From Escherichia coli (lineage in GTDB: Bacteria; Pseudomonadota; Gammaproteobacteria; Enterobacterales; Enterobacteriaceae): a DNA stretch of 64,000 bases. The position numbers and the translations under genes are program-made. Below, piece by piece: positions 1-4,891 of the stretch (position 1 is its first letter; each line of letters opens with the position of its first letter). The stretch lies in assembly GCF_003334765.1 (NCBI RefSeq), contig NZ_QOWT01000020.1; one strand, written 5' to 3'. Below the pieces are notes generated by a model. The model did not search any database, was not told the origin of the DNA, and worked only from the letters and a program-made list of their open reading frames with translations.

Positions 1-296
1 GGCATTTTCCAGCCGGGGCCGAGGCTCCCCACCGGCGCGGGCGTTTTTGTCCGGTAACTGCTGTAGGTGCGGGAGAGAATGAACGGCAGCGGGCCGGGCA
101 GGGCGATGTCGGTTTCACCGGGAAGGACCTTTGCACCGAGCAGCGGATTGACCGGATGGCCGGACGTCACCCCGCCGGGGCACACCGAACAGGCCACGCC
201 GGTGGGGGCACCGATGCGTACCCCGGCTGAACCCTGGACAATGCTACCGCCATACTGCGTCATGTCGCCCTGACGCGCCGCCGGTTTTCCGCTCAT
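1..296 (-). CDS. rhsC: Rhs-family protein, N-terminal fragment (gene runs off the window start)
   Basis: Minus-strand ATG at 294-296 translates MSGKPAARQGDM..., the conserved Rhs N-terminus; no stop before position 1. rhsC rather than another rhs copy is inferred from the ybfA/kdp neighbourhood. Confidence 0.8.
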   Translation of the reverse strand, partial: MSGKPAARQGDMTQYGGSIVQGSAGVRIGAPTGVACSVCPGGVTSGHPVNPLLGAKVLPGETDIALPGPLPFILSRTYSSYRTKTPAPVGSLGPGWKM

Positions 297-481
297 CTGC
301 TCATCCTTGTTTTATCGGGTTATTTGTCTGCTGACAGGCGAAACCCTACAGATTTATAAGAAAGCCTTAAGTGAGATATCTGTCAGATAAGAACAATTAG
401 GAAAATATTTATATATATTTCATGAATATATGTTTCGATTGGTATAACGATGTCTAAATATTCCTCTGAACATCTTCCTGA

Positions 482-516
482 TACAAAAAACCGCCAGCGT
501 TTCCGCTGGCGGTTTT
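482..516 (-). terminator. Intrinsic terminator downstream of ybfA
   Basis: GC stem aaaccgccagcg/cgctggcggttt with a 4-nt loop; on the minus strand it is followed by a T-run (plus-strand aaaaaa at 485-490); lies about 20 nt past the ybfA stop. Confidence 0.6.
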
Positions 517-538
517 CAATGTATTCAAAACTCAGCAA

Positions 539-745
539 TCAATAAAAATCACCAGTTGCCTTTTCGGCCTGATCCATCCACACCGGTTTATCGCTGGTTT
601 TCGACCAGACGCGATGCAGGTAGCTGTAAAAGCGGGCGCGGTCTTTCCAGAAAAGCATGAAAGGCAGCGCCAGAACGCCCGCTGCAACCGCATAAGTACG
701 GCGTAAAAAGATAAGCCATGCAGGATATTCTCTGTAGAGTTCCAT
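539..745 (-). CDS. ybfA: Small uncharacterized protein YbfA
   Basis: 68-aa [19 protein letters not shown]... matches YbfA in size and sequence; divergent from the kdp promoter. Confidence 0.85.
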
Positions 746-2842: not shown

Positions 2843-4891
2843 ATGAGTCGTAAACAACTGGCGCTATTCGAACCAACACTTGTCGTTCAGGCGCTGAAAG
2901 AAGCGGTGAAAAAATTAAACCCGCAGGCGCAATGGCGCAATCCGGTGATGTTTATCGTCTGGATCGGCAGTCTGCTGACCACCTGTATTAGCATCGCGAT
3001 GGCAAGCGGTGCGATGCCCGGCAATGCGCTGTTTAGCGCGGCCATTAGCGGTTGGCTGTGGATCACCGTACTGTTCGCTAATTTCGCCGAGGCGCTGGCA
3101 GAAGGCCGCAGTAAAGCGCAGGCCAACAGTCTGAAAGGGGTGAAAAAAACTGCCTTTGCCCGCAAGCTGCGTGAGCCGAAATATGGCGCTGCGGCGGACA
3201 AAGTTCCTGCCGACCAACTTCGTAAAGGCGATATCGTACTGGTAGAAGCTGGCGATATTATCCCCTGCGATGGTGAAGTTATTGAAGGGGGTGCATCGGT
3301 CGATGAAAGCGCCATCACCGGGGAATCGGCACCGGTGATCCGTGAATCCGGCGGCGATTTTGCCTCCGTCACCGGCGGCACGCGTATTCTTTCTGACTGG
3401 CTGGTGATTGAGTGTAGCGTTAACCCCGGCGAGACATTTCTGGATCGGATGATCGCGATGGTGGAAGGCGCACAGCGACGCAAAACGCCGAACGAAATTG
3501 CCCTGACCATTCTGCTGATTGCCCTGACTATCGTCTTTTTACTGGCAACCGCCACGCTGTGGCCGTTTTCCGCGTGGGGCGGTAATGCAGTCAGCGTAAC
3601 GGTACTGGTGGCGCTGCTGGTCTGTCTGATCCCAACCACTATTGGCGGCCTGTTGTCAGCGATCGGCGTCGCCGGGATGAGCCGGATGCTAGGCGCGAAT
3701 GTGATTGCCACCAGCGGACGTGCAGTTGAAGCGGCAGGTGACGTTGACGTTCTGCTACTGGATAAAACCGGCACCATCACACTCGGTAACCGTCAGGCGT
3801 CGGAGTTTATCCCCGCGCAGGGCGTGGATGAAAAAACGCTGGCTGACGCCGCACAACTGGCTTCGCTGGCTGATGAAACGCCGGAAGGCCGCAGTATTGT
3901 GATCCTCGCCAAGCAGCGTTTTAACCTGCGCGAGCGCGATGTGCAGTCGCTCCATGCCACCTTTGTACCGTTTACTGCGCAAAGCCGGATGAGCGGGATC
4001 AACATCGACAACCGCATGATCCGTAAAGGTTCTGTCGATGCCATTCGTCGCCATGTTGAGGCTAACGGTGGTCACTTCCCTACCGATGTTGATCAAAAAG
4101 TCGATCAGGTTGCGCGTCAGGGAGCCACGCCGCTGGTGGTGGTGGAAGGTTCTCGTGTGCTGGGCGTTATTGCGCTGAAAGATATCGTCAAAGGCGGTAT
4201 TAAAGAGCGCTTCGCCCAGCTGCGCAAAATGGGCATTAAAACGGTGATGATTACCGGCGATAACCGTCTGACTGCCGCCGCGATTGCTGCGGAAGCGGGT
4301 GTCGATGATTTTCTCGCCGAAGCGACACCGGAGGCCAAGCTGGCATTGATCCGTCAGTATCAGGCGGAAGGTCGTTTGGTAGCGATGACCGGCGACGGCA
4401 CCAACGATGCTCCGGCGCTGGCGCAGGCAGATGTCGCGGTGGCGATGAACTCCGGCACCCAGGCGGCGAAAGAGGCGGGCAATATGGTCGATCTCGACTC
4501 TAACCCGACCAAGTTGATCGAGGTGGTGCACATTGGCAAACAGATGCTGATGACCCGTGGCTCGCTGACCACCTTCAGCATTGCCAACGATGTGGCGAAA
4601 TACTTCGCCATTATTCCGGCGGCATTCGCGGCAACGTATCCGCAGTTAAATGCGCTGAACATCATGTGCCTGCATTCGCCCGACTCCGCAATCCTCAGTG
4701 CGGTGATTTTCAACGCCTTGATTATCGTCTTTTTGATTCCCCTGGCGTTAAAAGGCGTGAGTTATAAACCGCTTACCGCTTCTGCCATGTTGCGCCGTAA
4801 CTTATGGATTTACGGTCTGGGTGGGCTGCTGGTGCCGTTTATCGGTATCAAAGTCATTGATTTACTGCTGACCGTTTGCGGTCTGGTGTGA
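2843..4891 (+). CDS. kdpB: K+-transporting P-type ATPase catalytic subunit B
   Basis: 682-aa [25 protein letters not shown]... with P-type ATPase motifs (DKTGT at the phosphorylation site, TGDN, GDGTND). Confidence 0.96.

Follow-up and report, generated by a model that had tools for sequence, protein, structure and literature searches.

The 5′ end of a probable rhsC gene and the boundary of the accessory RhsC element next to ybfA in an Escherichia coli genomic window

The rhsC 5′ end and the spacer towards ybfA

The window, by which we mean the whole stretch of 64 000 nucleotides of E. coli DNA that was analysed, opens inside a gene carried by the minus strand (Table 1). Translation of its first 296 positions gives 98 codons, free of stops and still open at the left edge, which encode MSGKPAARQGDMTQYGGSIVQGSAGVRIGAPTGV...GPGWKM; the complete fragment reads MSGKPAARQGDMTQYGGSIVQGSAGVRIGAPTGVACSVCPGGVTSGHPVNPLLGAKVLPGETDIALPGPLPFILSRTYSSYRTKTPAPVGSLGPGWKM. 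Direct reading places the ATG at 296-294 and an AAGGA Shine-Dalgarno sequence at 308-304, 7 nt 5′ of the ATG, while a TAA in the same frame lies at 314-312, i.e. 18 nt 5′ of the start. The combination of this upstream stop with the Shine-Dalgarno sequence makes the start unambiguous, and the start annotated by RefSeq is the same in K-12 and in strain H3. The 98-residue fragment matches positions 1-98 of the NCBIfam RHS_core profile (NF041261) with E = 4.6e-61, and a chance match is therefore excluded; the original prediction of a minus-strand ORF that begins at 294-296, encodes an Rhs N-terminus and runs off the window is thus borne out. The GC content of this segment is 67.6%, as compared to 51.2% for the window as a whole.

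Which rhs gene is concerned is decided by the neighbourhood. RhsA, RhsB and RhsC are 100% identical to one another over residues 1-150, so that the assignment to rhsC comes only from the ybfA/kdp context: ybfA (68 aa, 745-539) lies on the same strand as rhsC, with kdpFABCDE beyond it on the opposite strand. Since ybfA is annotated by RefSeq in every genome inspected, it constitutes a core-genome neighbour that anchors the locus. On these grounds we are highly confident that positions 1-296 hold the beginning of rhsC, the principal gene of the RhsC element and one that encodes a polymorphic toxin. [quoted passage not shown]

Table 1. Features at the left edge of the window (positions in window coordinates)
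Feature	Position	Strand	Basis
rhsC 5′ end, codons 1-98	1..296	-	Translation, RHS_core match, RefSeq start in K-12 and H3
DUF6531/plug, first part of residues 46-123	1..161	-	Pfam (E = 2.2e-17), Tse5/RhsA alignment
Predicted autoproteolysis site, His47-Pro48 codons	153..158	-	Alignment to Tse5 and RhsA sites
PAAR-like module, residues 1-47, with a literal P-A-A-R	156..296	-	Alignment to PAAR proteins
AT-rich leader of 118 nt, common with the rhsA locus	297..414	-	Sequence comparison
Shine-Dalgarno AAGGA; TAA at 312-314 closing the frame	304..308	-	Direct reading
AT-rich segment of the rhsC locus only, up to the element boundary	415..486	-	Occupied/empty site alignment, genome matches
ybfA intrinsic terminator	485..516	-	RNA fold; kept in Nissle
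ybfA, 68 aa	539..745	-	ORF list, RefSeq

The AT-rich region of about 240 bp that had been noticed towards ybfA measures 242 bp (297-538), with a GC content of 35.5% overall and of 32.6% in 297-486. In plus-strand coordinates it comes after the ORF, but with respect to the orientation of rhsC it is an upstream region. It is a composite of three parts: a leader of 118 nt, 72 nt specific to the rhsC locus and the ybfA terminator. The leader (297-414) has a 100% match in strain MS6198, where it adjoins the rhs gene of the yibF locus, and is near-identical to the sequence upstream of K-12 rhsA; no copy was found upstream of K-12 rhsB or rhsD. Its presence at the rhsA locus makes it part of the duplicated element.

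The terminator consists of a stem (491-499 paired with 504-512), a GAAA loop and, on the ybfA/rhsC strand, a run of six U residues. Its predicted folding energy is -28.6 kcal/mol on the minus strand (z = -8.5) and -26.7 kcal/mol on the plus strand (z = -7.5); it is thus hairpin-competent on both strands, and it insulates rhsC from read-through transcription of ybfA. Direct folding revealed this hairpin clearly, whereas our terminator scan did not have it in its list. The hairpin is kept at the empty site of strain Nissle. Between the ybfA stop and the terminator, a segment of 20 bp (516-536) is strongly divergent when K-12-like genomes are compared to Nissle, with conserved flanks on either side. 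One genome matches the window only from position 537 on.

The RhsC element beyond the window edge

What follows 3′ of codon 98 is described from matching genomes, those of H3 and K-12, and not from letters of the window. Positions 1-1100 are 100% identical in many E. coli chromosomes, K-12 MG1655 included. When 25 kb are considered, strain H3 (NZ_CP028732.1) is the only perfect match, many other genomes being 1-3 bases off. The window belongs to a near relative of K-12 but is not MG1655 itself, as shown by the 25-kb search, the SNPs described below for K-12 and a pseudogene difference. This last difference concerns an intact ORF of 252 aa on the plus strand of the window (13174-13932), which belongs to the DUF2625 family according to the K-12 annotation of the region; its K-12 counterpart is a pseudogene with an internal stop, split into ORFs of 105 and 136 aa. 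Two of the four differences between window and K-12 (13490 and 13607) are located inside this ORF, and one of them restores the ORF.

In both H3 and K-12, RhsC is a protein of 1397 aa with one shared accession (WP_000015200.1; b0700 in K-12). At full length it scores 2683.5 bits against RHS_core, for a cutoff of 2000; it matches the NCBIfam profiles YD_repeat_2x (E = 9e-41) and Rhs_assc_core (residues 1170-1247), and Pfam finds DUF6531 at residues 46-123 (E = 2.2e-17), at least 10 RHS_repeat matches and the RHS core motif. The ORF, when extended past the edge in these two genomes, therefore has the YD repeats and the Rhs core expected of it and does not terminate shortly after the window border. 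As anticipated, the variable part lies outside the window. The RHS-associated core ends in the PxxxxDPxGL motif typical of the class, in the form PISNIDPLGL (residue 1238), after which divergence sets in with a Cys-rich tip of 150 aa. The gene order on the 3′ side, in K-12 as in H3, is ybfB, an orphan rhs fragment, ybfC, remnants of ISAs1 (H-repeat) and ybgA. The small ORF ybfB overlaps the rhsC stop and encodes a very hydrophobic protein of 108 aa, while the orphan fragment at the K-12 locus has 506 codons and a tip of its own; a small ORF at the rhsC 3′ end, followed by an orphan tip/ybfC cassette, is the arrangement expected for an Rhs locus, ybfB being a putative immunity gene.

The junction between ybfA and rhs exists in 3687 of 5426 complete genomes, and the remaining ones match the window only from position ~485-487 on. 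In Nissle the site is empty and ybgA directly adjoins ybfA. Alignment of occupied and empty sites puts the element boundary at about 486/487, in the U-tract of the ybfA terminator, where about 10 bp are replaced and no obvious target duplication is seen. Roughly two thirds of E. coli genomes thus carry the RhsC element, an accessory island measuring about 9.5 kb, at a site between ybfA and ybgA, in agreement with the view of Rhs elements as accessory that accompanied the original prediction.

The second part of this view, that Rhs proteins carry variable C-terminal tips with their own downstream gene, is equally verified at this locus. The tips that follow the motif are of 150, 136 and 178 aa and have merely 32-39 identical residues in common; those of strains 746 and AST215 are unrelated to the K-12 tip, and each is followed by a different small ORF. 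In O157:H7 Gim1-1, the main Rhs protein (L008:7097-11296) bears a tip that K-12 has only on its orphan fragment (L001:8226-9746), with identity at 158 of 160 residues, and ybfC comes next. The boundary motif of this O157:H7 protein is PVQYIDSMGL and not ...DPxGL. Such a pattern looks like the replacement of C-terminal tips that was proposed for Rhs and CDI loci (PMC3150448). The GC content along the element, 61% in the core, 41% in the tip and 31% in ybfB, fits a mosaic structure. Over 3.72 kb, the rhsC core shows 97% nucleotide identity to both rhsA and rhsB; the figure for rhsD is 78%. Homology with rhsA and rhsB stops at nt 3720-3744.

There are consequences for annotation. The window begins within a 3.7-kb repeat whose counterparts in rhsA and rhsB are 97% identical; such a repeat can mislead assembly and read mapping, and it is a substrate for chromosomal rearrangement. 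The boundary of the element lies about 190 bp upstream of the rhsC start codon, at the ybfA terminator. What lies past the edge varies between strains, and the 5′ end of rhsC is no guide to it.

Delivery of the toxin and alternative readings

In solved PAAR proteins, it is the final repeat that aligns with residues 2-29 of RhsC (9rce_c, E = 9e-4; 4jiv_D, E = 0.011), and the RhsC segment KPAARQGDMTQYGGSIVQGSAGVRIG, which aligns with GKPAARMGDTTSHGGSITIGCPTVIIG of 9rce_c, contains the PAAR signature, then G-D and the G-S/x-V-x-I-G strand. Only one of the three repeats of a complete PAAR profile is recognisable: RhsC covers positions 68-94 of the 94 positions of T6SS_PAAR_dom (NCBIfam NF033420), with 16.4 bits for a cutoff of 124, and has no match to Pfam PAAR_motif (PF05488) at E <= 10. 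A canonical PAAR domain was accordingly rejected on the Pfam and NCBIfam thresholds, and the term PAAR-like was retained. The corresponding N-terminal fragment of Tse5, also of 47 aa, is a PAAR-like domain required for secretion (PMC10684867), and by analogy residues 1-47 of RhsC may constitute the adaptor to the VgrG spike.

Self-cleavage after this module is predicted at His47|Pro48. P48 of RhsC falls opposite residue 1 of 8cp6_B, the shell chain of Tse5, and the segment GHPVnpllGAKVL aligns with THPVhaatGAKVL of Pseudomonas protegens RhsA; cleavage is proven at K47|P48 in Tse5 (PMC10684867) and at H304|P305 in P. protegens RhsA (PMC8765631). Between divergent strains, residues 1-98 of RhsC show 96-98 identities. 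From residue 46 on, the fragment would form the beginning of the plug (DUF6531) by which the cocoon is closed.

The RhsC tip has no family in Pfam, NCBIfam or PADLOC, and no NCBIfam or PADLOC family was found for YbfB, YbfC or the orphan tip; the search with the RhsC tip alone was made in Pfam, the PDB search with full-length RhsC giving only the best-scoring stretch of each match. YbfB (ybfB at L001:9777-10103, outside the window) consists almost wholly of hydrophobic sequence, in which about three membrane-spanning stretches can be made out by eye, and the tip contains 12 cysteines. The hydrophobicity of the one and the cysteines of the other suggest, by analogy with Tse5/Tsi5, that the pair acts at the membrane or in the periplasm. 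Judging from homologues, the tip would be toxic and YbfB its immunity protein, the two forming a putative pair; the literature searched turned up no toxicity or immunity test of either.

The standard mechanism of T6SS Rhs effectors most likely applies to RhsC. The 47-residue PAAR-like N-terminus would dock on the VgrG spike of a T6SS, while the plug domain and the YD-repeat cocoon would enclose the toxin. The C-terminal aspartyl-protease core, which ends in PxxxxDPxGL, would release the strain-specific tip; cleavage at this motif is likewise supposed in RhsC by analogy with solved relatives. The cocoon would then bring the cleaved tip into a neighbouring cell, and siblings would be protected by YbfB, made from the gene immediately 3′ of rhsC, which would neutralise the tip.

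Two observations weaken the case for delivery in the source strain. Firstly, among the eight occupied loci inspected, no vgrG, chaperone or T6SS gene is found next to rhs, ybfA being directly upstream; the same is said of rhsA-D in EHEC, orphan rhs genes that lie outside vgrG islands (PMC7216683). Secondly, K-12 MG1655 is reported to be devoid of any known competition system (PMC10761095), and therefore delivery of RhsC may not occur in such hosts. The main functional alternative starts from there: in hosts without a T6SS, the element could operate as an intracellular toxin-antitoxin or addiction module, expressed from promoters internal to rhs while the 5′ end stays silent. A precedent is offered by Salmonella Typhimurium, where full-length rhs is not transcribed and Rhs-CT/RhsI, expressed from internal promoters, behave as a type II toxin-antitoxin system (PMC7043789). 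In K-12, an RNA polymerase peak was mapped by SELEX inside rhsC near ybfB, at position 732870 (PMC5493296), and the rhsC region is silenced (PMC8282354). The separation from vgrG and the situation of MG1655 are also in line with this possibility. However, the delivery architecture (PAAR-like module, plug, cocoon and protease) is intact and nearly invariant, as judged from the conservation of the first 98 residues, which speaks for selection on delivery in some part of the species, and many E. coli with the ybfA-rhs locus do possess T6SSs (PMC7216683, PMC10761095). We therefore regard the intracellular module as an unlikely substitute for T6SS delivery.

A broader version of the same idea would extend to RhsA, RhsB and RhsC as a class. 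The genes could be kept mainly for a role independent of T6SS, either as an internally transcribed addiction module or as a reservoir of long recombination repeats. This could be argued because the N-terminus is a 47-residue stub with a single repeat, no vgrG is nearby and the AT-rich leader is presumably silenced, and because the genes are intact in about two thirds of genomes, strains without T6SS among them. If true, delivery of a weapon would not be the main reason for which the RhsA/B/C genes persist. We give this hypothesis little credence.

A further question is whether the source genome has a functional gene at all. The 5′ end seen in the window could be the stump of a dead gene, the rest having been disrupted or truncated by an IS, by an internal deletion of the core or by recombination between rhs genes. 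Alleles of this sort do occur: among genomes identical to the window over 1-1100, CUVET17-972 has an rhs allele broken by IS3/IS903 and MB10 has an IS1 in the rhs gene; ML35, for which about one base in 25 kb departs from the window, has an IS5-like insertion near the rhs 3′ end; QML220614, 99.7% identical over 1-1100, has an internally deleted allele of 593 aa; and the allele of BLK16 is annotated as 'DUF6531 domain-containing protein'. Against this, the sole perfect match over 25 kb, strain H3, carries the intact gene of 1397 aa, and the majority of the sampled entries from matching genomes bear the annotation of a full rhsC or of an RHS core protein. A dead remnant is thus improbable; going by the best-matching assemblies, rhsC is probably intact in the source genome, although disrupted alleles occur at the same locus. 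The 593-aa Rhs protein of QML220614 (L011:9515-11296) retains the N-terminus and the K-12 tip, without about 800 residues of cocoon repeats, and looks like the product of an in-frame internal deletion between repeats.

A scan of 1-1100 for sigma-70 consensus promoters gave nothing on either strand, and relaxed searches for sigma-70 and sigma-E promoters on the rhsC-sense strand between 281 and 560 were equally negative. A genomic SELEX study placed a peak of RpoE holoenzyme in the ybfA-rhsC spacer at U00096 728638, i.e. at about position 464 of the window (PMC5493296); the sigma-E consensus is absent at this position. The upstream region presumably holds a weak promoter or a silenced one, and we infer the silencing rather than demonstrate it here.

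It is very improbable that the spacer hides an independent element (a small RNA, a small ORF or a structured 5′ UTR): the conservation of the 118-nt leader at two rhs loci, the RpoE peak and two ORFs found mechanically, of 51 aa (538-383, minus strand) and 31 aa (450-545, plus strand), could be quoted in its favour, but duplication of the element explains the conservation between rhsA and rhsC, both ORFs overlap the terminator, are unannotated in any record inspected and are probably spurious, Rfam has no family near threshold (best score 25.6 bits for a gathering score of 90) and the fold of a 136-nt leader is no better than that of shuffled sequences (z = -0.28). On this last value a structured rhsC 5′ UTR was rejected, and the Rfam matches with E <= 1, which are centred on the terminator hairpin and far below threshold, were dismissed as chance.

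Comparison with known systems

The best solved homologue of RhsC is Tse5 of Pseudomonas aeruginosa (PA2684; PDB 8cp6; E = 1e-125), an effector of the H1-T6SS. The two proteins have the same layout: a PAAR-like fragment of 47 residues, a plug, a cocoon, a C-terminal protease and a tip of about 150 aa. Tse5 is cleaved immediately before a PVNP.LG.K segment (PMC10684867), as is predicted for RhsC. Tsi5, its immunity protein, is an integral membrane protein (PMC9637101), and YbfB is similarly very hydrophobic. A difference is that the literal PAAR motif of RhsC is absent from the Tse5 N-terminal fragment (PMC9637101). The other solved matches of RhsC in the PDB search are further T6SS Rhs cocoons and C subunits of Tc toxins. 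Among the former, P. protegens RhsA (PDB 7q97) has a cocoon, a cork-like plug, a His|Pro site that aligns with H47|P48 of RhsC and a C-terminal aspartyl protease (PMC8765631).

Some of these systems differ from RhsC at the N-terminus. Effectors that depend on prePAAR and Eag, P. protegens RhsA among them, have about 300 N-terminal residues, with transmembrane helices and a full PAAR domain in addition to the prePAAR motif, and require an Eag chaperone; RhsC, in contrast, has just 47 residues before its predicted cleavage site. In the BC subunits of Tc toxins (YenC2, TccC) and in teneurins, the region that closes the RHS-associated core or YD shell aligns with residues ~1147-1250 of RhsC, but these proteins work with a TcA translocator or are eukaryotic cell-surface proteins, and they are devoid of a PAAR-like N-terminus.

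The closest comparisons remain those within E. coli. RhsA and RhsB of K-12 have the 150 N-terminal residues and the core in common with RhsC, and rhsA also has the 118-nt leader, whereas the region upstream of rhsB is unrelated; both genes occupy sites of their own (with yibF and nikR as neighbours) and have their own tips and immunity genes. The RhsC element of K-12 (rhsC-ybfB-ybfO-ybfC-H-rpt/ISAs1 remnants), in an assembly with 4 SNPs relative to the window over 15.1 kb, has the same 98 residues, the same start, the same 242 bp upstream and the same ybfA/kdp context.
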